DNA from: Octopus vulgaris
Taxonomy: Eukaryota
Length of the DNA: 64,000 bases
Assembly: GCA_951406725.2 (NCBI GenBank)
Contig: OX597815.1
Location: forward strand, 71,300,001 to 71,364,000
Reading direction: 5' to 3'
Of the stretch, positions 6,049-54,238 are shown in pieces; position 1 is the stretch's first letter, and each line of letters opens with the position of its first letter. The position numbers were made by a program, and so were the translations under genes. The notes beneath the pieces are model-generated. The model saw nothing but the letters and a program-made list of their open reading frames with translations. It ran no database searches and was not told where the DNA came from.

Positions 6049-6101
6049 ACCCTCACTAACATTGAGGGAATTTGGTACGCAGAAATTGTGGAAGCTCGTT
6101 A

Positions 6102-6141
<40 letters not shown>

Positions 6142-6622
6142 TAGTATATATATCTTTATATATATAAAACTGAGAATGTGTGTCTGTCTGTCTGTCTGTG
6201 TGTTTCCCTAAAACTTGAGAACTACACAACCAATTTCATTCAAATTTTACACATGCCTTACTTAGGGTCCATGGGCAAAAAAAATGTTCAACTTCTTGCC
6301 TAGAGCGAGCCCATAGCAATATCATATCTTCTCCACTATTTCAGTATTACGTGTTAAAAGTGAAACAAAAATATTTCTCTATTTTATGTCAGATGCTTTC
6401 ACTTTAACAATAAAAATAATAATAACAATTGAATTATATGTAGTAAGTAATAATTAAAATCAAACTAAAGTATAATATAATCGTAACATACAAAAGTAAA
6501 AATAGCAATTGGTATAAAATTGCATCAATGATTTGAACTTGAATAAGTGGTTTCACTTGAATGGGAATAAATCAAAAATAAAATTAGCGTGCAGAAATGG
6601 AATAGTCCTACAATTCCAGTCT

Positions 6623-8515
6623 TCATTGACTTGGTTAGTTAATTTTTGTGTGAACTGTTAAATTGGAAAAAAAGTTGAATCGCGAGAGGCGCTTGCCGCC
6701 ACGTGTTGGAACCTTATTATAGAAGGTGCGTCGACCCTCAAGTCATGGAGACTTACGCGGGGGGCGCCGCAACGAAAAGTGATGAGCCTCTTATAGTAAG
6801 AGAAGTGTTTTTTAGAAAAGAACAATTATTGGACTATGAAAAATTCATCAAAGGGAGGGTGACAGCGTAAAGCTGGTCCCACCTGCTGAAACGATAGAAG
6901 ACAAAAATAATAAGACTATAACGTACAGGACGCAAGACAGGATTACATAAAAATTGGTGAGAGTAACGATAGAAGAAATTGAGAAATGTCTGGGGGACAT
7001 TATGAAAAAGGCAACGTACGTGAACAGAGGAAAGAAATATGGTACGGTGGAGGTGAGATGCGCAACAAAAGAAGTTGCGGCCTCGTTAGCTTCCACGGTA
7101 CTAAAAGCTGAAAACTTCATCATGTGGCCTACATATAAAGGAAAAAGAGGGGTACGGGTAAAGATCCCAAAGGTGCCGCCAGAAATAAAAACAGAAATGT
7201 TGGTAACAGCTATTCTAGGGTCAGCGAAGGAGGAAATAGAAATAGGGTCGATCAAGGAGACCAATGTTGTGAACTGGAAGGGATTCGGAGTGGAGATGTG
7301 GCTGATGGCCACAATAGAAGACATAGAAAGGTTTCCCTTCCAAATTGAACTAGAAAATGAGAGAACAATGGCCGTAATTGTGGAGGGGAGAAAGCCGAAC
7401 TGCTACTTGTGTGGGTCAAGAGGACACATAAGAAAGGAATGTCAGCTATATGAATTCACAGCGGAGAAGGAAATGGAGCGAAAAAAGACACAAAGTGGAG
7501 AGACAACGGAAGAAAACAAAAAAGAGAATGAAAAAAAACACGAAGGAAAGAACAGCGAAAGCAAGGAAAAGGAAATAACGGTGAAACAACAAGAGAAAGG
7601 AAGTAACAACACACTGAAGGAAAATGAAATCAAAGGGAAGAAATTAATAGAAAAGGAACAAAATTCACAGGGCAAAGAAGTAATAGAGAAAGAACCAAAA
7701 CAGAATCAAGAGAAAGAAAAGGAAAGTACACTAAAGGAAAGAGAAAAAAACAGGGAATAAACAAGAGAAGGAACAGAAGCAAGAGAAAGGAAAAGATGGC
7801 ACACGAAAAGAAAAAGAAACAACAGGAAAGGAACATAAGGCACAGGGTAGAGAAACGACAGACAAAGAGCCAAAAAGACAAGAGAAGGAAAAAGAAAGAA
7901 GAGAAAACAAAAAGAGAGAAAGAGAGAAACCGAGAGAGGAGAGCAAAGAGGAAATAAGTCCTAAGAGGAAGACTAGAGAGAACAGGCGATACAAATTCTA
8001 TGGAACGTTGGTCTATCACAGGCATTATGAGGAGATGGAAAATGTGATAAACGAAACAGATGGATATACATGGGTCAGGACGGGCACCGAATGGAAAGAA
8101 ACGGGTGCACTAGTTCACGAGGACGGCGCCGATGCATTACTAGGCAGCCGGTAAGAACGTGTTAAAACACATGAAATGCCGACTTGTAAGGTGGCCAAGA
8201 ACAATGGAGAACTATGAAGAATTGGTCGAGGTAATGGAAAATATTTTTTTGAAAACTTTATTGGTGAAAAGAATTTTAAATTCTACAAAATGTTGAAGTG
8301 ATAATACACTCTGAAAATTTTTTTGAAATATATGTAAAATGATTTTGAATTTTATTGTGAAATGTGTCTTTGAGAAAAAAATGACGAAATGTAACCACTC
8401 GATTTCGGGGATCGAGTGGGCATTACACCACATTGTACAAATTCCATAACTCATTATTTTATTTTTTCCCGATTGTATTGTCCCCTCTATGTTTCCCCTT
8501 GTGGGTAGGAATAAA
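6623..8515 (+). mobile_element. ORF1(gag)-only non-LTR retroelement related to the adjacent Tx1-type LINE
   Basis: Flanked by the 13-bp direct repeat ACAATTCCAGTCT (6610-6622, 8516-8528). Its ORF1 is homologous to the neighbour's ORF1, no EN/RT is present, and the last ~45 nt are nearly identical to 13571-13617. Confidence 0.8.
6745..8153 (+). pseudogene. Disrupted ORF1/gag-like protein with one CCHC zinc knuckle and a long E/K-rich tract
   Basis: Probable start METYAG at 6745, then a frameshift and a stop. ORF 6954-7760 contains TYVNRGKKYGTVEVR and CYLCGSRGHIRKEC. The 3' end is approximate. Confidence 0.75.
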
Positions 8516-8760
8516 ACAATTCCAGTCTGTTATATATTGTAAGTTGTTCTATTTCCACTGTTATATTGAAGTACTGTTGATTTTGTCTATATTGTCTGTT
8601 TTTGTGCAATAATTATTATCAGCCTTCGCGCGAGGGCTTCGTGTTAGAGTTCCCCCCCTCCGTGGGGGGAAAATTACTGTTTATTTGCACATACATTTGA
8701 GGCTTGCGAAGCCGAAACAATTTTGTTGTATTGAAAGGCTTGTTAAGCCAGTCTTCGGAG

Positions 8761-10023
8761 ATGGACTCCGATATCTCCAGTTCACCAGTGACAAGTGACG
8801 AGAGTTCACCGGCGGTGTCGCCGAGAAAAGAAGAAACCCCAGCGCCAGCTAGGAAGTTTTCCGAAGTGGCCGGGAAAAAAAAAAAATAAATACAGAGAAC
8901 CTGGAAAAATACGCAGACTGTTTTAAAAAGGAGGGCACAGAAGTAACGGTGTTTACGAATGTCCAAAAACAAGAAGAAATTGAAAAGAAAAGAATCATAT
9001 ACAAAACGTTCAATATTACAAGCAAGTCTATTCAAAGAATAGAGGAAAAAGAGATCGAAAATTGCCTAAAGCCGATATGGAATAAGATTACTTACATTAA
9101 TCGCGGGAAAAAATACGGTACAGTGGAAGTGAGATTTGCAACGGAAGAAATAGCCAAAAAGCTATCTACGGAACCTATGAAAGCAGAGAATATTGTTCTC
9201 CTCCCTCTGTATAGAGGCAAAAGAACCTCAAGAATAACAATCAACAATATTCCCCCAGAAGCGGACGCCACATGTCTGGTGGCAGCAGTTATGGCAGGCC
9301 TGGAGGACAAAATAAACATCCTCCAGGCTACAGTAGAAGAGGAGGAAAGCTGGAAAGGGCAGCGTATCTCAATGGTCATTCAGGCAGAGGTACAAACCCT
9401 CGAAGAAATACCAGAGACACTGAAAATCAGTGAGGAGGAAAGAGTCGTGGTCTTCGTGGAGGGCAGAAAGCCGAGGTGCTTCGGCTGCGGTAAGAAAGGG
9501 CATGTGAGGGCAGAGTGCCAACCCAAACCGCAGGAAGCAGCTCAACCAGAAAAAAAAAATGGAAGAAGTGTCACCAGAAACAACGCCAGACAGCCCAGAA
9601 GGGACAACTGAAGGTGAGGAGGTGACAGATGCAACAGAATCAGCGGCGGAGGTAACAGAAGAAGCAAAAAGCGAGGGGTGGTCAAAAATCACTAGGAAAA
9701 AAAGAAAAACTGAAACCACCCCTCCGAAAGTGAGCCAAAAGAAAAAAAAAGAAACATTGAACTCATTTATGGCCATTAAGGCCTCAAATAATAGACTCAT
9801 TAATGTGTTGGCAGCTATGGCCAAAGTAGAAAAAAATTTTTTTTTAATGATTTCATACTGTACAGAATAGGCCGGAGGGATTACGGACGGATGAAGTCCG
9901 AATTTTTTCATGACGTGGGCCCTCTCAGAATCGACATATATATACGAAGGCCTGCGTCAGACTCCCCCACGAGTCCGGGAAAAAGACAAAAATGAAGAAG
10001 AAAAAGTCGAACCACTGATATAA
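8761..10023 (+). pseudogene. Tx1-type ORF1 (CCHC zinc knuckle), frameshifted
   Basis: ORF pieces 8704-8889, 8949-9611 (TYINRGKKYGTVEVRF; CFGCGKKGHVRAEC) and 9559-9870. Breaks fall at A runs. Confidence 0.8.
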
Positions 10024-10031
10024 GGTAAGTC

Positions 10032-13000
10032 ATGGATTACATTTATGTTGGTTGTTTAAATGTGCGCGGCCTGGGATCAAACTGGAAGCAAGGTCGCTTC
10101 CTTAATGATATCAGGTCGCATAATTTGGATGTTATTGTTGCTACAGAAACCCGGTTAGAGGGGCCAAGAGGTCTACTCCCGCTGTTTGGCGGCTACGAGA
10201 GTTTTTTTCTCTCCGGCCAGTCCTACCGGCGGGGGTGGGGTGTTGGTCCTATAAAAAAGAAACCGGGTTTTTGAGAAAAAGTTAATTTTTTCACACCCAG
10301 AAGGTAGGCTGGTCGTCATGGATTTGACGTTCAGTAACGGTAAAGTTATCAGACTGGTTGCAATTTACGCACCCAACCAAAAAGGGCAAAGTGATTATTT
10401 TCGAGAACTGGATAACTTTCTTGGTACTTCGCATTCATTAGTTGTGCTAGGAGACTTTAACACAATTTGCAAAGCGGTTGTAGATTGTGTTGGCTTGCGT
10501 CCAGATAGAAAAGGTAACATTGGCTTCCTGGAACTGCTAAGCCGCTTTGAGCTAGCAGATCCTTATAGGTTGGAATTTCCGAACGCTCCATTGTGGACAT
10601 GGTCAAGCAGCGACGGATCTTCCAGGTCATACATAGATAGGATACTAATTAGAAAAGTAGACAGAAAAATAGCTAAGTGTCCACAGTTTTACCTGGTCAG
10701 CTACAGTGATCATAAAATGGTCACCTGTAAGCTTGACATAGATATGGTTAAAAATAGAGGCTCCGGTTATTGGAAACTTAATACGTCCCTTTTGGCGATT
10801 AAGGAGTACAGAGACCGGATTAGGACTATAATTCAGAGGGCGCTATCTGGTGCCATCATTAATAACAAATGGTGGTATGCCCTCAAGTGAGCCATCAAAT
10901 TCGATTCTATTAGATATAGCATAGGATTAGTGGCTAGAGAGGCTGGGAGGGAATCTACTCTAGTTAAGGAATTAGAGGAAGCCTTGAAAACTGGCTCTGC
11001 GGCTCAGGTGACGGCCAAGAGACTGGCGTTAAACCAGCACCTCGAGGCCAAACACATGGGCTGCATTGTCAGGGCTAGGATCCGAGCAATGGATTGTGAA
11101 GGAATCAACGCCGTGAGATGGGCTCGAGTGGTGGAAGCTCAGCGTGGTAACGACGTCACAATTCGATCTATGACGAACCAACGAGGTGAGTTGATAAACG
11201 AGCCCGAGGAGATGTGTGAGGCTTTTCAGGAGCACTTCGCTCAGCTTTTCGGTGGAGGCGGCGGACTGGATAAGAGGAGGGCCTTTACGGACCTCCTCGA
11301 CAGGCTGCCGCACCTATCGGGGTGAGATGCGGAGGGCTGTGAAGGGCCAATCACGCCTGGGGAGGTGGTTGAGGCGATGGCGGACTGCGGCGCGGGCAAG
11401 GCGCCGGGTTTAGATGGTCTACCCTATGAGTTATATAAGAGTATGCCAGACTTGTTCGGGCACCTACTGGCGGTGGTCTATGCGAACTGGCAGCAGAACG
11501 GGTTCATACCCAGATCTGTGCGCCGGGGAGTGGTGACACTCGTCAGATAGGACCCGAGCAAGGGGGAGTGCATTGATAATTTCAGGCCCATCACTCTGCT
11601 AAACACAAAGTTGAAGATTTTGGCCAAAGTGTTATCGAAAAAATTGGCGCGTGTCGCGGATGGTCTGATCGGGGAGGCACAGACATGTGCCGTTCCCGGC
11701 AGAACCATTCAGGATAATCTCCATCTTATGCGGTACACTATAGAGGGGTTTAATAGTGATTCTGGCAAGGGTGGGGCACTGGTCCATTTAGACCAATCTA
11801 AAGCATTCGATAGGGTCGACCATCGCTACCTGGTGTCTGCCCTGGCACAGTTCGGACTGGGCCTTGGCTTCCTCAGGTGGATTATCCAAATTAACATTGA
11901 CTCGGTAGTTCGGGTAAACGGCTTCTTGTCGAAGCCGTTCAACATCAAGCGCTCGGTTCGTCAAGGGTGTCCGCTTTTGAGCCATTACTGCGAAAACTGA
12001 GCGGCATCCCGAGACAGCCAGGTTGTGGAAAATCGGTGTCAGCGTACGCGGATGACATCACCATCATCGTAACCGAAATGGATCACCTACAGAGGGTAGG
12101 CAAGGCCATAGAGGTTTACGAGACGGTGACAGGAGCAAAGGTTAATCATGAAAAGTCAGTCGGCTTGCAACTCGGCACCTGGAGAGGCAAGTCGATGCCT
12201 CCTAACAGCGTCGTGGGACGTTGGACGGAGGGTCCGATTAAGTTGCTAGGGGTTTGGTTCGGTCCAGACCTCCAAATAGAGAAGAATTGGGGCGAGGTAA
12301 CGAGCAGGATGGCTGCAGTAGCCAAGATCAGGTCTTGGCGGTGGCTATCCCTGAAAGGGAGGGCGGAGGTAGCCAATGTGTTTATCGCATCGGTTATCAC
12401 CTACCGCCTTTCCGTCGTTCCTTGCCCTGATTCGTGGTTGAACAAGTTGGAAAGACAGCTCTTCTACTTCTTGTGGAAGGGCGGGAAACCACTTGTGAAA
12501 CGCTCTACTTGCTGTCAACAACCGTTAAAGGGTGGGCTAGAGATGCCTTGGCTGATGATGCGCAGACATGCGCTGAGGTTAAGACATCTGTGGCTCTACC
12601 TGGATGGTGAACGGGTGTGGTCTCCGCTAGCAAAACTGATGTTTCCCAAGTTCACTAGTTTCGGTGGATGGGAAACCTGGCTGAATCGTAGATCGAAACT
12701 GGGCACATGGTACACGGAGTGTCGCAAGGCTCTCCTGCTTTTCCGTCGCTCGGGCAACGCCTGCGGTGGGGGTTCCACCACATTCTTCTATAGAGGGTTG
12801 GTAGAGGTTGAATGTGAAGATACCTTGGGGGAAACCCTAGGTCTCGACGATAATCAGCTGGCCAGTCTGTTCCGACGTACGTTCGAGCCGAAGACCCTGG
12901 ACAACTTCCAGAAGTCTCTGGCGTGGCAATGTTACAGAGGAGCTCTAGCTGTTCGGGATAAACTCGCAAGGCACGGTGGCCAAGACAGTCCGATATGTCC

Positions 13001-13376
13001 AAGATGCTAGCGGGATAGGGAAACCGTCCCGTACGCTATTGTTCATTGTTCGGTCGTGTCCGAGGTGTGGGTTTATGCCGAACAGCTGTTGTCAAGCACA
13101 CAAAGAGTACAGCTGTCGACTGAGTCTATTATAAAAATTGACCCACCAGATTTCCTCGCGAAAGAAGGTAAGAATTGTTTTCTCGTTGTAGTAGCAATTG
13201 CGAAAGAGGTGATTTGGAAGACTAGAATGAAAGGTTTACGGTCAGGCAAGTTCATCTCCGGCCCTGGATTGATGAATTACTTCATATTTCACCTAAAAAG
13301 GAAGATAGGGCTGGAGAGAAAATGCCTGACTAAGAGAACGATGGAAGGATGTAGCACGAAAGTTGCGAGTGGATGA
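10032..13376 (+). pseudogene. Tx1/L1 ORF2: APE endonuclease and reverse transcriptase, with several stops and frameshifts
   Basis: Motifs LNVRGL, TETR, GDFN, IDRI, SDH, YWKLNTSLL, KAPGLDG, LDQSKAFDRVDH, SVRQGCPL, AYADDIT and CPRC*..HC. In-frame stops at 10888, 11323, 11548 and 13008. Confidence 0.92.
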
Positions 13377-15044
13377 TACCACATAAATGTAAAACTAGAT
13401 GAAACCAAAGTATCAGTGGGGAGGCGGGGCTCGTGGGGTCCGAGCTAAACCCGCTCCCACTCCATCCGTAATGTCTTCCGGTCTGTTCTCCATTCGATTT
13501 ATATTTGTATTTTATTGAATTTTTAAACTCATCTTTGTGTAACCCCATTCGTGTATCTGACCCCACATCAGATTGTATTGTCCCCTCTATGTTCGCCCCT
13601 TGTGGGTAATAATAAAACCATTCCAGTCTGTTATATATTTTGAGTATTGTTATCACTAGCGATATCAAGATATAACTTTGTATTTTGCATTTTATGTGTA
13701 GATGTATATATATAGATGTACATGTAATATGTACACATATATATACACATATATACATGCACTAGCACTATGACCCGGCAACGACGGGTCTTTAATGCTA
13801 GTAATATATATAGTATTTATGTATCTCATGAATGCAATGTTAAAAAGCTTGAAAGAAATATATACGTAGTGAGAATTAAAAAGAAAGAGAACAATAATAT
13901 TAATCAACTCAGTCTTCTACTTATTTCGGTTGTCTCTACAGGACATAACCTAAATAATGTTTTGTTCTGAACGCAACGAAACATAATTCTTAGTGCATTT
14001 AGTGAATTAATGATAAATAAATCACTAAATAATTATATAAGAATATGTGTAGATATTATACATGCATTATTAACACATGTCTGTTAGCTGAAACATGAAA
14101 TGCATTCGCTGTGGAATTTTGTCACAGAGAAAAATTTTGACCCTCGCTTCTTTGTGTACTTGCACTAAGTTAATTCCATCTTGGAATGCCTGAACACACT
14201 CCAACAAAAATGTATTGCTTGCAGAGTTCTAATTATTAAGTTCCAGTTGAGCTCGATCTGACCGATGTAGTATCTGTAACTGTGGAGGGAAAATCACACC
14301 GAAACACAATGTCTGGTAGTCCGCTGACATTATTTGAAGCACGACTTGATGTGTTTTTGACTCCATGTCTATAGAGATTTACACGTTCTAGTATATCACA
14401 GTGTGTTAACAAAATAAATGTGCACATCTTTATGTTGATTCTCATCATTTCGAGTGCTTATACTAAAAGGAGCTTGTAGAAAAATAAACTCTATGGAAAT
14501 AATATAATTCAGAGACGCCATCTGTATGAAGAGATGATAGTTATCAGTGTTAACATGGATCATTAACATTTTAAAATATCTCCTCTAAAATGTTCATTCT
14601 TCTTATATATCTTGTGTTTTTTCTCTCCTGCCTTCTAATTTATTTCTAATAAACGGCTCAATACATTAGATTTGAGAACACTAACTTATAACCATGATAA
14701 CTAATCTATATCTCGTACCGTTATACTAACCTTTAGGAACCATCGCTTATTCTTAAAACTATTAATGTCTTTCGGATACGTTAAATCCTTAAAATGCCTC
14801 GACAGTTTGCTAACAATAACCGATCTTCTGATACACAACTGTGAATCAATTTTTGTTATTGTTGTTTTATTTCATTTTCACCTTATTTAATTTTTTCCAT
14901 ATCTATTTTCCTTTTTGTTTATATTTATTTTTTGCATTTTGTAATGTATATCTGTTGCCTTCGCTAAATGTTCATCAATCCACTTTCGCACTATGCACGC
15001 AGGTGAAGAATCTCCACGCGATACACACACACGCACACACACAT

Positions 15045-21225: not shown

Positions 21226-22344
21226 AATTGATTAACCGAATGACCAATCAATTCATTATTTAGATGGTTATATTTAGTTGGTCAACTAGTTATAAAAATA
21301 ACAAAGAAGTGAAATAGGACTAGTGCATGTGTTTATCATTGGCATCATTTAATGACCCTCCCGAGATACAACAAACCTGTCACATTTTTCTAACACAAAA
21401 TTTCGTTTTACACACGCAAGAATAACCATTATTCATTAAAAAAAAAAAAAAAAACTGGCGGAATCTATTGAACGCAGATGAAAAATTCTAAAATATTCAA
21501 ATACTATCTCACTACATAGATAATCTACATCTCAAAGTGCTCTACTCTCAGAATCAGCCATTAATAATTAAATTCAGAAGAAAGCTATAATGCTATAAAG
21601 TTATTTTTATATATTTGTATATTATCACTTTGAAAATTTAATTTTTTTCTAGTTCACTTAGCTGCACAAAAGAAATATACTCATTATATCTACAAAATAT
21701 TGCTAATATCATTATAGCTAACTTCTGAATTTAATTATTAATGCTTGATTCTGAAGGTAGAGCTCTTTCAAGTGTATATTTTGTCATAATAGAGCAAGTA
21801 TTGTAGTTTACTCGAATTTTCTATTTGTCTCGGAAATTCTAGAATTTCAAAAATGTTCTGGCAACGCCACCGTATACAAAAACTAATAGCGCTCTTATAA
21901 TTCTTGTTCTTACCATCTGCTGACGAAGGTAAGTGGTGTACGTTTGCGCGCGCATGTGTGTGTGTGGCCTACGCAGTATAAATGGAAACGCTTAAAGTTT
22001 AAACATTACTCTATAGACTGGAAAAAATTAACCTTATTCGATTTGGGGATTTTATCAGAGGTGTCTATATCGTTTTTACCAATACCGGGGATATTAGCAA
22101 CCAATCTGTTTCTATACTTATCAAATCCATTAGCTATTAATTTGCACACCATAAGTGTTTAACATTTTATTTGATATCAGCGGTTTGTTAACGGAAATCT
22201 CAGTACACAGTGCCAAGGTATGAAATATTATATGTAACCGACGTAGTATAAATACAAACACTGCAAAAATAACCATGTGTGTATGTGTGTGTGTATATAC
22301 ATGTGTGTATGTGTGTGTGCTGTGATTTATTGTATATATCTAAC

Positions 22345-25300
22345 TTCATCAAACCCAAGCCCGCAGGTGGGACTACCCACTATATACCAGACCACCACAG
22401 CAAACAGACACAGGATGGACACCGCCGGCAACAACGTACACCTCACCTCGATACTCCTACTGAACATCAGAGGACTGCAAACACTCAGTAACAGGACAAA
22501 GATCTCGTTCCTGAGAGACTTTGTTGCATGCAATCAAGCCTTATGCATAGCACTTACAGAAACGCACCTGAAACCGGACATAGCAGATGCGGAGTTACAC
22601 ATACCACAGTATGCTGTACTACGGACCGACAGGAAAGAAAGGAGTCATGGAGGTGTTGCTATGTACATCCGTGAGGACCTTACACCCCAGGTCCTCTTGT
22701 CATACTCAAACTCGGTGTGTGACACACTAATTGTACATATTAGGCAACTTGATGTAGTTGTGTGTGCTACATATCGCCCTCCAGATGCACCAAGCCATGT
22801 GGGCAAGTTTGAAGACTGCCTTATAAAAATAGAAGAAATTCTAACCACATTAGAACAACACATAGGTGTGCTTCTTATGGGAGACTTCAATCTGCCCAAT
22901 GTCAGATGGCCCGAGGGCCTTTCTCTCCCAGGAATGACAAGATGTGAACGAGGACAGGCGAGGTCCCTCCTGAACCTCATCAACACCCTGTACATGGAGC
23001 AGGTAATACTCCAACCAACCAGGGCAGGTAACACACTGGATCTCTGCTTCACAAATGACATGGATCTCATCCATAATGTGAAAGTGACACCGACACTACT
23101 CTCGGATCACAACATGATAGAGCTGACCATGTACGGGCCAAAAAGAGAGCACGGACATGCAGCCTACAAGAAACCCTCAAAATCTTTCCAGCTTGAACTA
23201 CCATAAGGCAAACTGGAAACAAATTGAGAAAGAGATCCTCAAACAAAACTGGCCTAAATGTCTCTCCTCGCCAGACATCGACGTGAAACTTCAACAATTC
23301 ATGTCTGTAATGCAAGCCATATGCTACAAATGTGTCCCAGAGAGAAAGGCCGCTGTACACAAGAACAAAATCCCCAGAGAGAGGAAAATTTTAATGAGAC
23401 GGCGTACGAAATTTTCAAATCGCCTAAACAAACAGATTGAAAGCAGTGAAAAGTCCCGCCTAAAAATGAAACTGTTGGAAATCGAAAAATGTCTGCAACT
23501 CTCCCATGAAAAAGAAAGAGCAGACAAAGAAGCCTGGGCTATAGAAAACATAAAATCTAACCCCAGAGCTTTCTACAGGTATGCCAAAGAAACAGCTACA
23601 GTGCACTGTAGAATAGGGCCACTCCTCGAAAAGGATGGCACACTTACAGGAAAACCAATGAGGGTAAGTGAAATACTGAATGAGCAATTCAAGAGTGTTT
23701 TCACTCCACCCCTTGGGCATCTCCAAATCACCAATCCAACTGACTTTTTTACCACTGCAGATATAAAATCAGAGGCGGCGACGATAGATTACATCGATAT
23801 AAAGGAAGACGATGTAACCAAGGCTATAGATGAAATGAAAACAGACTCAGCTACTGGCCCCGATGGATTCCCGGCAATCCTCCTAAAAGCATGTAAGAGA
23901 GTCCTAGCAAGACCACTGCAGTTCCTCTTTCAGAGCTTCCTTGCAGCTGGCAAACTTCCAGGAAAACTGAAGGAAGGTAAAATATGCCCCATTCATAAAG
24001 GAGGTAGCAGAGCGGAAGCCAAGAACTATAGACCTATCTCTCTGACCTCACACATCAGCAAGGTCATGGAACGAATAGTCAGAAGGAAGCTGATCACCTT
24101 CCTTGAAGAGAATGACTTGCTGCCCGACACCCAACATGGTTTCCGACCAGGGAGAAGCTGTTTAACTCAGCTCCTACAACACTATGACTGGGTGCTGAAA
24201 CGGCTGCTCAACCACTCAAATGTGGAAGTGATATATCTCGACTTTGCAAAGGCCTTTGATAAAGTCGATCATGGAATGATATGTCACAAACTGCGTGATC
24301 TCAACATAATTGGAAAACTGGGAGAATGGCTTCATGACTTTCTGAAGGATAGAAGTCAGGTGGTAGTAGCCAATGGGGCCACCTCCATTAACACACAAAT
24401 AGTGAGCGGTGTCCCGCAGGGCACTGTTCTGGGACCACTACTGTTCATAATGGCCCTCTCAGACATGCCCTCAGCCACGCAGAGAGCCACGATCACAAGT
24501 TATGCAGATGATACAAAAGTTTCACAGGCAATACAGAACCCTGAGGACACTAAACACCTGCAATGTGAGCTGGACGAAATATACAAGTGGGCTGAAAAGA
24601 ATAGCATGCAGTTCAATGCTGGAAAGTTTCAAGCTTTATACTATCAGCATGCAAAACTGAATGCAATACCCAATGAATACACTGGACCCGGAGGGATTGC
24701 AATCCCAGAGGCACAATCAGTGCGTGACCTGGGTATTCACATGAGTGATGACGCGACCTTTCATGTACATGTTGCTAAACTGACAATGAAATGTAGACGG
24801 CTGGCTGGATGGATTCTTAGAACCTTTAGAACAAGAGAACAAGAAACCATGATGGTCCTCTGGAAGACACTTGTCCTAAGCCACTTTGACTATTGCTCTC
24901 AGCTATGGTCACCATCCAGTGTCAAGTTGATCACAGAACTTGAGGCGATCCAACGAAGCTACACAAAGAAGATAGCCTCTATGCAGAATGTAAGCTACTG
25001 GGAAAGACTCAAGAGATTAAAATTATATTCCCTGGAGCGTAGGCGGGAAAGATATGCCATAATATACATCTGGAAGATCCTGGAGGGAAGTGTCCTGAAC
25101 TTTGGCATCGAGAGTTACGCAAATGCCAGAACTGGGCGCCACTGCGTGGTGCCTAGGACTCCAAACCTGCCATCAAGATGTAGGACAAGATTCTGTGATA
25201 GCCTGGGCTTCCGAGGCCCACAGCTCTTCAATATCCTCCCGAAGAACCTGAGAGACCTGCATGGGGTGGATACAGATGTCTTTAAAATGAAGCTGGATCT

Positions 25301-25500
25301 CTTCCTGTCAGGTGTCCCAGATGAACCAACTTCACGGCAGGAGGGGCAGATGAGGGCAGCTGCATCGAACTCTCTCATGCACCAAATAGCAGTTGCTAGA
25401 AAGCCTCCATGAAGTGAAACCAAGTAGCAACACCAAATGGCGGTGCCCCAGCATGGCCACAGCTCATAAGCTGAAACTAGAATCAATCAATCAATCAATC
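22345..25500 (+). mobile_element. CR1-group (CR1/L2-like) LINE, probably 5'-truncated, with an (AATC)5 tail
   Basis: EN-RT ORF, short 3' UTR with a stem-loop, and tandem AATC tail at 25481-25500. Confidence 0.9.
22415..25412 (+). pseudogene. APE endonuclease-reverse transcriptase (ORF2), ~1000 codons with one frameshift
   Basis: LNIRGL, TETHL, YRPP, GDFN, TLDL and SDHN in ORF 22277-23206; GPDG, YRPISL, QHGFR, LDFAKAFDKV, GVPQGTVLGP, YADD and LERRRER in ORF 23157-25412. The shift lies between 23127 and 23206. Confidence 0.92.
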
Positions 25501-25980: not shown

Positions 25981-27717
25981 AGCTGTAGTGTCTAAAGTAA
26001 ATAAACAGCGTAGAAACCTTGTGACAGTATGGCTTGACTATAAGAAGGCATTCGACTCTATCCTTCATTCCTGGCTGTTAAAGTACCTACATCTGGCAAA
26101 AGTACTTACCACCCTAATTGCTGTTATAGAGAGACTCACAAAGACATGGACAACAATTCACACCCTTCCAACTGAGAACAGAATAATTGTTTCATATACT
26201 ATAGGCATTTCAAAGAGAATATTCCAGGGAGATAGTATTTTGTACTTCTTTTCATTTTGGCACTGAATCAACTATGGTTCCAAATGCAGAAAACAAATGG
26301 CTACAAACTACGATCTTCAACTGCTAGAAATGTCAATATAACACATAATTTCTTTGTAGATGATCTCAAGATTTATTCTAAAAGTGTTAACAATGCCAAA
26401 AAAACAACTGGAATTAGCAAGATTTTCAGCTGATACAGGCATGGAAATTAGCCAAAAGAAATGTTCAGATTTGGATATAGAACGAGGAAAGTCAGTCCTC
26501 CAAACCCAAAACCTGTGCATCAACGGGCTCTCTATCTGCCCCATTCCACACAAAGAATATTACAAGTACCTAGGCATAGATGAAAATTTATCATATGGAG
26601 GCACTGTGAATAAAGATAGCATGACCCGAGAATATTACACCAGACTTAGGAAAATATGCCAATCGGAACTCTCCTTTTACAACAAAACAATATCCCACAA
26701 TGCATTTGCAGTACCAGTGCTGATCCCAACATTTGGGATACTTAATTGGTCTGTAGAGGAAATCCACTCTATAGATATCAAAAGCCGCAAAATCCTGACA
26801 ACAACTGGGAACTTTCACAGAAGCAGTGATGTTGTCAAGCTTTACCTGAGAAGAAATGAAGGTGGTAGAGGCCTGAGATCAGTGCAGACGGCCTTCGAAT
26901 GCTGTATGGTATCACTCAGGCAGCACCTGCTGAACAATAGCAGCAGAAATAAATATATAAATGCAGTGCTGAAAAGTGAGCAACATTGTACAAGCTGGCA
27001 GCGAGCTCCTCAAGAAGCACTCTCTTCTTGGGGCTATTACATCAGAGAAGACCTGGATGGAAAGCCTCAGCATACAAAAATAAAAACTATGCATGGGTAT
27101 GTTACCCGAAAGCTTGAAGAAGACAGTAGAATTGACACGAAGCGTAGCCTCTCTCGGACACAAGACCTCTACATCACATCACACTTTGAATGTTTTGCGT
27201 TTGCAGTCAAAGAACAGGAGATAGCCACAAAGTACCTGGTGAATAAGAGAGACAGTGACGCTCTTGTAATCTCAAGGTACAACCGCGTGTGTAAGCTATG
27301 TCATATTCCAGTGGAAGACATCATGCATGTGATTAGCAGCTGTCCTAAAATGTCGTGGTACTACCTCCCTGTGCTGTACGATGTTGTTGCTAAAACAATT
27401 TACAATGTCATCCGCAAAAAAACCTACTCTGAAATAAACTTAGAAATTCCCTCTGTTATGAACACCAACTCAAAAAATACTGGTGGAATATTCCCATCAA
27501 AGCTTCTGTCAAATGTAAACATAGCAGGCCGGATATGGTTGTTTGGAAAAGAGGGGCAAAGGTATGTATCGTCATAGAGGTCAGCTGCCCTACAGATATA
27601 AATATCTGTTTGAAAATCTAAGAAAAAGAGGATATATATGGACAACTGCTTCGAAACCTCTAGCTTCTGGATCCAGACTATGAATTGGCAAGGAATCTTG
27701 AAATAAAATTGAATAAT
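25981..27717 (+). mobile_element. 5'-truncated, decayed R4/Dong-clade LINE (RT, zinc motif, restriction-like endonuclease)
   Basis: WLDYKKAFDSI, IFQGDS, FVDDLKIY, YKYLG, LYLRRNEGGRGL, CKLC..H....C and RPDMVVW..IEVSCP. Flanked on both sides by (TACA)n. Confidence 0.85.
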
Positions 27718-44867: not shown

Positions 44868-47471
44868 TGTTAGAAAAGATTATATCATCGTCGAAGAGAA
44901 AGAATGGAACTGTTCATTCCTAAAATACTCTATTAATAATCAACCTCATTTTTTTTCTCTCTGAAGATGGAATAGTCCGCTACTATATGGATAGCTTTTA
45001 TATCCTTCTATACGTTGGATATACAGATTTCATGAAGCGATAGACAAAACTGTCTTAATACGACGTACTTCAAATTACTCCACTAAACACGATACTCCAA
45101 TAAATACAAACTCTCAACGATTTCAAAGACTTCCTACGACTTCCTCAAACTCTCAACGACTCCTACGACTTCCCTCGTTTCAACCAATACGTTACTCTTT
45201 ATGAGAGTTCTGCTAGCCCAGCCTTCCAATTCCACGAGGCAGTCAATAACTCTCGCCACAACATCTCCCCCTTTGAGATTTACTTCCTAGGGAAGTTTAA
45301 TATTTCTTCCGTTTAGGCACTACTTCCAACCGTTCTGCTTGTGTCCTCTTTCTTGTGCTGCTACGCCTAGGTTCGACTTCTTGTGGTGTTGGAACACCAA
45401 AGGTGTCGTAGAGCCTTCATGTTACCATCTTTATATTTATGTAGCATTACTGCTCCTACACCGTACTAAGAAGCGTCTGAAGCTACAACAATCTCCGCTG
45501 CAGGATCGAAGTGAGCTAGCGACAAATCAGATAGCAATATTTTTTTTAATTTCGTCAAACGCCTTTTGGCAATTGTCTGACCAATTCCATTTCATCTTTT
45601 TCAGTAAATTATTCAATGGAGCCCTAACCTTATGCATCTTTAGGATATAACTTTGGTAATAATTTGGCAGTCCTAAAAATGCTTGTATGGTCGCTATATT
45701 AGTCGAAGGAGGCATATTTTTAATTGCGTCTGCCTTCGACGGGTCAGGACGTCGTCCATTCCTGTCAATGACATCCTAAATATCTTATTTTCGGTAAGAA
45801 AATTCACACTTTTCTTCATTAATGGTAAAGCCATAACCCTAATTTCTTCCAAATAAATATTTTACCTGCTCAACGTGTTGATCCTTAGATTCGCTTTTAA
45901 TGAGTATATCATCCAGATATGGAATAGCGAATTCGCAGTCAGCTAATATTGCAACCATAATCTGTTGGAAAATTGCTGGTGCGACCTTTAAACCAAATGG
46001 TAACCTGTTGTATTTATAGTCCTTTATGTGTGTTCACTGTTAGGTATTTCGAGAATTCATCGTCTACTGTAATTTGTAGGTACGCGTCAGGGAGATCCAA
46101 TTTAATAAATATCTTTCCACCGTTTAATTTCGCAAAAATATCCTCCGGAGTAGGTAGCGGATAGTGGGATGTTGTAAGACAATCGTTTAAACCAGTGGAA
46201 AAGCCAGCGCACACTCTGATTTTATTATTCTTTTTCTTAATATTCACAGTTGGTGCAGCCCATTTAGAATATTCCACTTTTTGGATAACTCCTATTTTTT
46301 CTAGTCTCTCTAGTTCTTCATTGACTTGTTTCATCGCTGTGAAGGGTACCATTCGTTTTGGTTTAAATACTAGTATGGCGTTTTCTTTTGTTTGGAAACA
46401 CGCCTTTGTCTTGATACACAGACCTATTTCATCGGACAGAACTTCAGGAAAAATATTTTCTATTTTTTCTTTCAATTCGTCTGACGACTTGTTTTTACTG
46501 GAGGAAAAGCCATTTATATTTTTACAGAACAGATTTATGGGGTGGTCCCATAAATCAAGCAATTCCATCCAGTCTGTACCGAACAAGTTTGTTGCATTAT
46601 TTAACACAAAACTTTCAAGTTTTACCCTTAAATGTAACCTCAGTTATCATTTCGCCCCAAAAATGTTTTTTTTTTTTTCTGCGACACTATTCACAATTTC
46701 TAAAGTTTCCATTTATTTAGGCTTTCCAAATTTTTTCTAAGTGTCAATGATAATAATTGTAATATCACTTCCTGTATCTAGCTGTAACTTCACGTTCAAA
46801 TTATTAATCTTTATGTACACAAATTTTCTTTTGTGAGCCTTGCCTAAACTTTCTGTTGAGAAAACCTTTCCAGAATTTTTTTCCGTTCAACCTTTTTTTT
46901 TCTGCAATGAGATCTTTTATGTCCGATTATGGATTGAGTATTGATCTTCGTTTTTCTTTTTCCTTATCCGTTACAAGTCGACACGCATGTATCTGTGAGT
47001 AATACTTTTCTTCAATTTTATTAATTCTATGACATTCTTCTGCCACTGCCTGCTGAGTCAAATTCTAGTCCTGTTCTAATTTTGTCAATATCCGGGTACG
47101 TATCTCTGCATCCTTGCTTGCAGTTAACCCTTGAACAAAAATTAGACATTTGAACATGTCCGGGGTTAATTTTTTTAGTTAGACTTTTTCGCATTCTCGA
47201 TTGACGACTCCGGCATACGTGACGGAATTTCCATCATCTTTTTTACTAAATTCAAACATTCCCAGCGAGTATTGAACAGGGAACTTCTCTCACTGAAAAT
47301 CTTCGGTAACAATTTAATTGCTTTAATAAATACAAACTCTCAACGACTTTCTCCGACCTCCACGAACTCTCAACGACTACTATGACTTCAGCCAATACGC
47401 TACTCTCTATAAAAGTTCGGCTAGTTCATTCTTCCAATCCCATAGAGGTGTCAATGACTCTCGCCACAACA
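44868..47471 (-). mobile_element. Internally deleted Ty3/Gypsy LTR retrotransposon with two diverged LTRs
   Basis: LTR homology between 45099-45263 and 47325-47471 (both end CTCTCGCCACAACA). PPT (TCTCCCCCTTTGA on +) at 45264-45276. Gag FNTRWECL..FKCLIFVQGL, protease LDTGSD, RT YLDD and RNase H start SDAS*YGVGAV, after which most of RNase H and integrase is deleted. The left boundary is approximate. Confidence 0.9.
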
Positions 47472-52215: not shown

Positions 52216-53087
52216 GAATATCCCAGTGATTAATGCGGTAAGGCTGAGGCTGCCAGCCAGTGCTTGAGCTATTATATGCCTCGGTCGTGCAGGAACAAAA
52301 GTGTGGCATGCTGGCGCGTTGTAAGGGACAAACAACTTTCTCTATGTATGCGTGACCGACCTAGGGTCTTACAGAGATGAGTTGTGTTTACAAGGGCACA
52401 TTGAGCATGGAAAACAAGCGAGAAAGGCATGTGTGGCGTATGAATGTGACAGAGATAGCATTTGTGTGTGTATTAACTATGTGTGTTCGTGTGTGCGACA
52501 GAAGTACAAACAAGGTGTATGCGGGCAAAACAAAATACAGCGGATAGGAAAAGTCTCTCAGGGTATTTCAGACAAGATGGAGTTAATTTACCAGTTCGTA
52601 GTAAAGTACATAATAGCAGTTCGTTCTGTAACAGGATGTTCGGATCACAAGTGCAGATTCCGGTTGAACACATGTCGTGTAGTGGTTGTGGATTCAATGT
52701 TGTGCCAGGTTACATTGGTACAGAAGATCTCGCAGGTAGTGCTGTGCTGTTAACCTCGGTGAAAATCATAACAGCGTGAAAGCTAAACCTGAATGAGTGC
52801 TATGTACATATTAGTTTTGCTGGCGATGAAGGCGACGGAGATGGAGATGACGTGTAGGTGAAGGACGACGATGGTGATGGCGATGGCAGAGAAAGGCGAC
52901 GTTGAGATGAAGGCGTCGGTGGCATTGCTGGTGTATGTTAGCGTCGTCATTGGCTGGAGCAGGAACATGACTGGCTGGTCTGGTCGTCTGTCGCTGGAAC
53001 TGGAACATGGTTGAGTAAGCTCTGTGTGGATGAAGACTGCGGCGGATTGATTGGTTCAGACTAGGTAGAAACTAGATTTTAGCTAAG

Positions 53088-53549
53088 TGTTCTATGGTCT
53101 ATGACCAGAACTCGGGAAACTTGCTTGAATGTTCTATGGTCTATGACCAGAACTCGGGAAACTTGCTTGACTGTTCTATGGTCTATGACCAGAACTCGGG
53201 AAACTTGCTTGACTGTTCTATGGTCTATGACCAGAACTCGGGAAACTTGGTTGAGTGTTCTATGGTCTATGACCAGAACTCGGGAAACTTGCTTCAGTGT
53301 TCTATGGTCTATGACCAGAACTCGGGAAACTTGCTTGACTGTTCTATGGTCTATGACCAGAACTCGGGAAACTTGGTTGAGTGTTCTATGGTCTATGACC
53401 AGAACTCGGGAAACTTGGTTGAGTGTTCTATGGTCTATGACCAGAGCACGGGAAACTTGGTTGAGTGTTCTATGGTCTATGACCAGAGCTCGGGAAACTT
53501 GGTTGAGTGTTCTATGGTCTATGACCAGAACTCGGGAAACTTGGTTGAG
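53088..53549. repeat. Minisatellite, 11 x 42 bp
   Basis: Unit TGTTCTATGGTCTATGACCAGAACTCGGGAAACTTG(C/G)TTGA(A/C/G); it appears as a 14-aa repeat in two open frames. Confidence 0.97.
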
Positions 53550-54238
53550 TCTTCATCTTATAAAATGTGGCCCCAGTAGACCCGAATGAAATCGGGTTAT
53601 ATTAACCAAAATGTGAAAAGGGGTCTAAATGGGGCTGGAAGGGGATTAAAATTTAAAGGAGCGGGTGTTTAGCAATTCTCTGTTACATCAAGCTAAAAAA
53701 TTTGCGCCAGCCTTTTAATCGTCAATGTGTTGCCGTCCATGATGAAGAAGTTTTGAATGCTTGCCATCGTGAGTCTACTGTCGTGAGAAAGAATCAATTC
53801 AAAACTTGGTGTTTAGGGATTTTCTTTTACATCAAGTTCAAAATTTTACGCCAGCCGTTGAACTGTCAATTCGTTGCTGTCCGTCGTTAAGAAATGCCAG
53901 CCATGGTGACTCTACTATCCTCAAATTCTATCCCTTCAAACTTTGGTTTCCAATATTTTATTATTTTTATTCAGCTCGCAAATTCGTCTGTCCCTTTTAA
54001 ATGTTAGTGTTTTGCTGTCTGCCTTGAAGCAGACCTTTCCGTTGTTACTGCCTGATATTTATGATTGATCTTTCTAAATATTTTATTTCTCAACTTACTC
54101 AAGATCTTTTGTTGTTTATAAATGGGAGAGAGATAGATAAAGATAGAGAGTAAGAGAAAGCGAGGGAGAGTCCGAGAGAAAGGAAGAGTAAGAGAGTGGG
54201 AAAAGTGAGAGAGAAAGGAGAGAGAAACAAAGAGGGAG

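Follow-up and report, generated by a model that had tools for sequence, protein, structure and literature searches.

The question raised by this locus is how two retroelements came to end at the same base of one host. In a 64,000-nucleotide stretch of the Octopus vulgaris genome (contig OX597815.1, positions 71,300,001 to 71,364,000; C2:71.30 Mb), which we refer to as the window, an element encoding only open reading frame (ORF) 1 (element 1) and a longer element of autonomous type (element 2) lie in tandem inside a non-autonomous Helitron. Pattern and similarity searches of the 2.8-Gb assembly, which underlie all genome-wide counts given here, make it quite probable, in our judgement, that at about 130 loci a Tx1-like long interspersed element (LINE) and its ORF1-only passengers occupy a fixed position of this Helitron through separate target-primed insertions, the nick likely being set by the LINE endonuclease (EN). 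An earlier note on the window had proposed insertion at a fixed site of the Helitron, and the repeated, independent insertions that we describe bear this proposal out.

The 3' ends of the family gave 427 exact matches to a 23-letter tail pattern. The first 30 of these ends all lie on C1, at 16 loci, and 27 of them, at 13 of the 16 loci, stand in arrays inside the Helitron host. A LINE family has been called target-specific when the same flank is found in >20% of its copies (PMC4494074); here it is found at 27 of the 30 first-listed ends and at 8 of the 30 closest relatives of element 2. Insertions occupy two host positions: site 1, represented in the window, and site 2, which lies inside an ORF1 relic carried by the host. 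We counted 25 site-1 junctions (up to 1 mismatch, one internal) and 105 site-2 junctions, and reversed-pattern controls gave 0 for each. Empty sites are plentiful: the first 100 of 1,094 site-2 rows comprise 13 filled and 87 empty, and when the left arm of the window's host was searched for empty Helitron copies, as the earlier note had advised, all 29 of the other best matches were empty with a contiguous target. The real support for a repeated target comes from these junction counts and their null controls, and not from the 13-mer on which the note had relied; that 13-mer does occur exactly at 6610 and 8516 and with one mismatch at 13617, and a scan of the window with 2 mismatches allowed yields 5 matches against a shuffle mean of 1.85.

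Intact 1131-amino-acid (aa) ORF2 copies of the LINE are present in the genome. One intact copy (L252) contains PF03372, PF00078 and PF13966. ORF2 has the domain order of the Tx1 clade, with an N-terminal endonuclease of the apurinic/apyrimidinic type (APE), a reverse transcriptase (RT) and a C-terminal zinc finger, and ORF1 bears a CCHC knuckle. Protein matches include the 'Transposon TX1 uncharacterized 149 kDa protein' (35% over 421 aa), the only informative name among 120 listed; human L1 ORF2p matches the family ORF2 with an E value of 7e-65, and among named ORF2 relatives that of Argonauta hians is closest (64%). A protein search with the EN region returned no named Tx1 anchor, and a separate protein search yielded unnamed CCHC proteins of molluscs and arthropods. 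We call the family 'Tx1-like' on domain architecture and similarity. The intact ORF1s of ORF1-only units are 421-428 aa long, and their ratio of nonsynonymous (N) to synonymous (S) substitution (dN/dS, calculated up to the knuckle in a sister lineage) is 0.06-0.14; by this measure the passenger ORF1 is under purifying selection. We also note a subfamily found in tandem arrays at two nearby positions of a segmentally duplicated multi-copy locus (L324-L325, L386-L390, L118, L119, L409), and a variant-tail subfamily (L035-L046) at scattered sites, with target-site duplications (TSDs) that mostly start GAT and no common host seen.

Helitrons begin with 5' TC, end in 3' CTAG with a subterminal hairpin and insert between A and T. 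In the host family TC follows A at 42 of 59 5' ends, 10 more reading TA after A inside TA repeats; CTAG precedes T at 23 of 25 scored 3' ends, a subterminal hairpin is present, and the copies have unrelated flanks, so that the host has the structure of a Helitron. The termini that had been reported for the window (TC after A at 6153, a hairpin at 13772-13790 and CTAG ending at 13801 before T) are all in place. The host occurs as four variants that differ by deletions. V1, the longest, holds ~930 bp consisting of the 5' untranslated region (UTR) and first part of ORF1 from another Tx1-like element, V2 lacks most of this relic, V3 retains ~75 bp of it and V4 retains none; judging from shared junctions and alleles, V1-V4 would represent successive deletions. 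The relic is 40-50% identical to the family ORF1s (E about 1e-13), and no full-length source of it appeared among its best 30 matches, which are all Helitron-borne. Within variants, host copies diverge by 3.6-4.9%. The site-1 sequence has 1,968 exact copies, the first 100 of which are 93 V1/V2, 6 V3-type and 1 V4; 25 of the 30 V3-allele copies examined are empty, and V3 empties total ~159. A host-like 3' architecture lies behind RepHel ORFs in 4 of 5 stretches examined, and none of the five RepHel 3' regions examined matched the host end as that of an autonomous partner would. The genome holds at least 150 RepHel matches, many of them in open frames of >1,500 codons, which points to several potentially active Helitron families, and host copies are also seen in head-to-tail tandems, V2 then V1 (L269-L271, L376-L377).

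The abundance of such sites bears on whether the LINEs were captured by the Helitron once or a few times and then spread by rolling-circle transposition of the filled copy; the earlier note had thought spread by the Helitron feasible. Filled site-1 copies do have a V3 right-arm haplotype in common, and intact RepHel genes exist in the genome. However, the V3 haplotype is also found in ~160 empty copies, array composition varies between loci, and a comparison of 20 filled V3 hosts with 25 empty ones revealed no derived allele that unites the filled copies. Copies truncated at the 5' end inside the host (L317 and the last unit of the C1:64.2 Mb array) carry TSDs of their own, 12-19 nt long. Furthermore, in 44 of the 45 closest element pairs listed, elements only 1-10 bases per kb apart sit in hosts whose right arms are 3-9% apart, and are thus several-fold more divergent; the one exceptional pair shares flanks beyond the host and is a segmental duplicate. 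This pair test is strong for site 2, while the site-1 case rests on the truncated copies and the V3 allele comparison. We reject hitchhiking in the Helitron, which pair divergence and V3 alleles render extremely unlikely. Because truncated copies have their own TSDs and hosts diverge more than elements, spread by the Helitron is not supported; as far as sequence comparison can tell, the insertions are independent, and the Helitron supplied sites and did not visibly spread the inserts.

The 5' end of a full-length unit carries with it 10-20 nt of target. In three off-target events (at C16/C31, in the C11 triplet and at C3:117.2 Mb) a local 16-17-nt TSD is followed by 14-20 nt that match the Helitron target. 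Of 19 filled V3 copies, 6 have a host variant immediately upstream of the nick, which none of 25 empty ones has (p=0.004), and the target box of one unit matches that of a 99.8% relative at another locus, not that of its array neighbour. On the evidence of these junctions, the target sequence travels with the element. Since such leaders are element-borne, the 5' copies of the window's repeats are not readable as pure TSDs. The earlier note had reasoned that targeting would fall if the repeat belonged to the elements' own ends; this is partly the case, in that the 5' copies are at least partly leader, and the targeting nonetheless survives. The 10-nt leader box exists in a dozen or more variants, often with 2-4 changes, and is far more variable than the element bodies (L238-L257, L398-L417). 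Rfam searches of 5' ends and targets returned no ribozyme or RNA gene above gathering scores; folding without pseudoknots gave one hairpin pair in the 5' UTR (z -2.2), and the element tails fold no better than shuffles. R2 RNA begins up to 36 nt upstream in its 28S target, and carriage of target sequence with the element, as we describe it here, has been postulated for many R2 elements (PMC3774820). Unlike R2, the octopus LINE has an APE and not a restriction-like endonuclease, makes TSDs and has variable and not uniform leaders; Rfam gave no match to a hepatitis delta virus (HDV)-like ribozyme in window 6100-9000.

Comparison of the host variants indicates what makes a site usable. Starting 7 nt ahead of the site-1 nick, V2 and V3 do not differ; V3 is distinguished by a purine-rich motif, and the same motif precedes site 2 in V1/V2, likewise 7 nt away. 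Measured from this motif of the ORF1 relic, sites 1 and 2 therefore coincide. Matched patterns detected 10 element-1-type left junctions in V3 context and 0 in V1/V2. Put differently, ~1,800 host copies with the 13-mer but without the motif have 0 junctions and ~160 with the motif have 10, and the V3 allele is present at 20 of 22 scorable site-1 right junctions (23 rows, one unscored). These findings suggest that the V3 deletion joined the motif to the right arm and so made site 1 usable. The target as first proposed is thus correct as to its fixed position, but the 13-mer alone is insufficient and the upstream motif appears to be needed. A second determinant lies on the right-hand side of the nick, since the first TSD bases differ between site-1, site-2 and off-target lineages, off-target TSDs beginning like the lineage's own target. 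Among 27 off-target rows, 9 lack a 5' end, and 7 of the 18 others have 12-19-nt TSDs that start 2-4 nt after AATAAAA; retrieval of a longer sequence added an eighth. A third host repeat ('site 3') was discarded as a target; its loci have kilobases of flanking sequence in common, as copies of a duplicated segment would, and are not independent targets.

We envisage that ORF2p would nick the bottom strand and reverse transcribe from a 48-nt tail shared by both kinds of unit. The RNA would start a few bases upstream in the target and, given that AATAAA lies at the very end of the element, would probably end inside the downstream target copy, so that both RNA ends could pair with a new site and the 5' end would overwrite host bases, a course that has been postulated for R2. 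ORF1-only RNAs would use ORF2p in trans while keeping their own ORF1. Each insertion would leave a reusable junction, probably reused shortly after, and trains could build up in this way. Autonomous site-1 ORF2 copies are 3.5% apart and site-2 copies 0.8%, and in a tree of the autonomous copies, on which the site label is clustered, the site-2 copies make up a single, supported clade that branches from among the site-1 copies; the younger site-2 lineage may have a single origin within the site-1 group, accompanied by changes in surface loops of the endonuclease. Site-1 and site-2 ENs show 16 residue differences; one is at the position aligned to L1 I204, and several fall in the loop region around L1 R155 (L1 positions from PMC1950540). 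It is likely that the LINE endonuclease sets the position, with help from target sequence on the RNA.

Several observations weigh against this account. Only 8 of the best 30 relatives of the 3' end of element 2 adjoin site 1, the rest being sister subfamilies that are scattered or sit at the duplicated locus. In the window the purine-rich motif is missing, and the loss of ~75 bp must be invoked to explain it; nor, on inspection, is the motif evident upstream of off-target sites. The EN changes (16N:14S) are not clearly in excess of those in the RT (8:18, p=0.11) or in the rest of ORF2 (p=0.67), the EN specificity hairpin is unchanged between the site-1 and site-2 lineages, and ORF1-only lineages, which have no endonuclease, switch site at least 3 times. 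An EN comparison with the 'site 3' copies gives p=0.007, from two copies of one locus, and carries little weight.

It is possible, though we think it doubtful, that site choice passes from a parent copy to its descendants chiefly by way of the RNA, whose two ends would pair with the new site through the target sequence they carry, while the endonuclease is only loosely specific. Leaders that are carried along and overwrite host bases would fit such a scheme, as would the lack of a clear excess of EN divergence and the site switches of the ORF1-only lineages, which cluster after switching; yet these switches also fit a simple succession of autonomous partners, as the two levels of ORF2 divergence indicate. 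An allele just to the right of the site-2 nick, present in 11 of 13 filled and 27 of 87 empty rows (p=0.0003), is expected if the RNA pairs there, but the bias also tracks host variant V2. Moreover, only V3 is used at site 1 in spite of the identity of V2 and V3 around the nick, which implies that something upstream of the observed leaders matters.

More distant LINE families share the hot spot with shifted 3' ends (L312-L315, L322, L395-L398, L411). One of these (83% ORF2 identity) ends ~6 nt upstream of the site-1 nick and others end ~14-28 nt upstream of the site-2 nick; an 86-88% relative that sits, flanked by a TSD, in the 5' UTR part of the relic of a V1 host represents a further site (L263 / L394). 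Such offsets from the same nick, the copy in the relic's 5' UTR and the absence of an evident motif at off-target sites would be accommodated if a host factor, a nucleosome gap or a DNA bend at the A-rich motif tethered or exposed the DNA for several LINE families. Against this, the nick is exact to the base in every lineage, and the first bases of the TSD stay characteristic of the lineage at target and off-target sites alike. We consider the idea unlikely and continue to favour an endonuclease-set nick.

Array units measure ~1.8 kb (ORF1 only) or ~5.2 kb (ORF1 and ORF2), and arrays hold 1-10 of them. ORF1-only units stand 5' of autonomous units in 29 of 33 mixed arrays, where 11 would be expected, and the last unit is autonomous in 32 of 33, the order having been coded by hand and some arrays having been retrieved without one or the other end. 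Another route to arrays would be unequal crossing-over, or local duplication of a single inserted unit. Some neighbouring units are 99.2-99.8% identical, and the two copies of the duplicated C16/C31 locus differ by a single, near-identical unit, so that single extra units may be explained in this way; as a general cause it is refuted, and very improbable, given that divergence within one array reaches 8%, that the closest relative of a unit can sit at another locus (99.8%) and that arrays mix several families. The numbers of private changes per unit are similar within arrays (site 1 p=0.02, site 2 p=0.06), a measure that depends on sampling, and similar ages of this kind suggest rapid or single-event assembly. 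In one array eight passengers up to 5% apart have no private change, and off-target trains carry a repeated local TSD. Together with the polarity and the similar ages, these two observations lead us to raise, tentatively, the possibility that a train is written in one integration event or burst, the autonomous RNA being copied first and the target box acting as a heritable site memory. An unsealed nick might be re-primed, or the RT might jump through the target box at both RNA ends, with ORF1-only passenger RNAs from several loci added successively on the 5' side; the landing pad would then be a dead Tx1 ORF1 fragment that was amplified by the Helitron and became a habitat for relatives. Private changes did not establish a direction of array growth (left unit with more in 10 cases, fewer in 21, ties in 37; p=0.07).

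Tx1 elements that target transposons are already known. Tx1L of Xenopus inserts in Tx1D, crocodilian Tx1-Mar and SINEU-3 in Mariner-N4_AMi, Tx1-9_AMi in Harbinger, and Tx1-8_Crp and Tx1-4_AMi in long terminal repeat (LTR) elements, and families targeting piggyBac, Mariner, Harbinger and LTR elements have been reported along with tandem SINEU-3 copies (PMC4494074). The octopus system resembles these in pairing an APE-type LINE, at a fixed site inside another transposon, with non-autonomous partners at the same site, in tandem copies that sandwich a TSD, and in truncated copies that show independence. It differs from them, as they are presented in the text of that paper, in that the host is a Helitron and the anchor a LINE-ORF1 relic inside it; the partners encode a selected ORF1 and are not short interspersed elements (SINEs); arrays contain up to 10 units, combine several families and are polar; and a host deletion created a second site, with a switch of site between lineages ~5% apart. 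Like HAL1 (half-L1), an ORF1-only derivative of L1 (PMC5753468), the ORF1-only unit is a non-autonomous LINE that encodes only ORF1p and shares its tail with an autonomous partner; unlike HAL1, its partner is Tx1-like and site-specific, and the passenger ORF1 is a separate lineage (39%), not L1-derived. In an octopus repeat annotation, 13 L1-Tx1 families with 421 insertions are given as recently active, alongside 8 Helitron families, and the word 'nested' is absent from its main text (PMC13282606). A Helitron-targeting Tx1 was not found in the titles and the starts of abstracts of the papers listed, a search that left outside it Repbase and the tree figure and supplements of PMC4494074, which name targets. 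We count the relic anchor, the polar arrays and the element-borne leaders as new points.

As head-to-tail trains of gag-only and complete elements, the arrays are also reminiscent of the telomeric arrays of HeT-A, TART and TAHRE described in Drosophila; unlike those, they are internal, bounded by TSDs and inside a mobile element. HeT-A lacks an RT. We note that the locus offers a natural experiment on how APE-type LINEs find their sites, in that a host deletion seems to have placed an unused sequence beside the anchor motif, after which it was used, and a young lineage, in which intact 1131-aa ORF2 copies occur, appears to have switched to a neighbouring sequence. The findings would extend transposon-targeting LINEs to Helitrons and to ORF1-only passengers under selection, and raise the possibility that several units insert in a single event. 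As insertion tools, too, site-specific LINEs whose RNA may carry target homology are of interest.

In the window, whose features are listed in the table, the 3' ends of both elements adjoin the identical target base, as had been stated. The duplications described around them, of 13 bp and 23 bp, are present as repeats, but their initial 2-3 nt are element 3' ends or microhomology and were trimmed, because off-target copies end AATAAAA plus 2 nt and the TSD begins there; the corrected exact repeats measure 10 nt (6613-6622 = 8519-8528) and 20 nt (8519-8538 = 13620-13639). Apart from the 48-nt 3' tail (92%), elements 1 and 2 have no similarity at the DNA level, and their ORF1s are 39% identical. 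ORF1 of element 1 lies in two pieces, 6951-7760 (with the CCHC knuckle, zf-CCHC) and 7735-8154. Element 2 has a broken ORF1 (~8761-9870) and a broken APE-RT-zinc-finger ORF2 (10032-13386) that is 93% identical to the intact 1131-aa copy in L252, from which it differs by stops plus indels of 1, 6, 25 and 11 nt.

Features of the window around the two tandem elements (positions within the 64,000-nucleotide window)
Feature	Position	Strand	Remarks
Helitron host left arm	6153..6612	+	5' TC after A; V3 alleles; V4-type junction
Target box, left copy, 10 nt	6613..6622	+	TSD and/or 5' leader of element 1
Element 1, ORF1-only non-autonomous LINE, ~1.9 kb	6623..8518	+	Frameshifted ORF1
Element 1 3' tail	8471..8518	+	Ends AATAAAA + 2 nt; without poly(A)
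Internal junction, 20-nt target copy	8519..8538	+	Partly leader of element 2
Element 2, autonomous-type LINE, ~5.1 kb	8539..13619	+	Broken ORF1 and broken ORF2
Element 2 3' tail	13571..13619	+	Shared with element 1
Helitron host right arm	13620..13801	+	Opens with target; V3 haplotype; hairpin 13772-13790; terminal CTAG before T

The left arm lacks, at 6608/6609, the ~75-bp segment with the purine-rich motif, and the resulting junction is the sole one of 91 V4-type junctions that continues into an element-1 leader. That the host is simply the short variant V4 is ruled out by its V3-like arms (left alleles 3/3, also seen in 2/29 V4 copies; right haplotype V3; nearest arms V3), and the window would instead have lost ~75 bp by local conversion or a leader-guided deletion. 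A second, independent pair of an ORF1-only and an autonomous unit, in a V3 host, lies 30-40 kb upstream of the window (C2:71.266-71.273 Mb), its first unit being only 87% identical to element 1. Elsewhere in the window, 22247-25412 (+) holds a further LINE whose EN-like and RT-like frames are separated by a single frameshift, translations of 26360-27577 (+) and 46014-46643 (+) resemble RT remnants of other retroelements, and 53076-53589 is a ~33-nt tandem repeat that is open in several frames.

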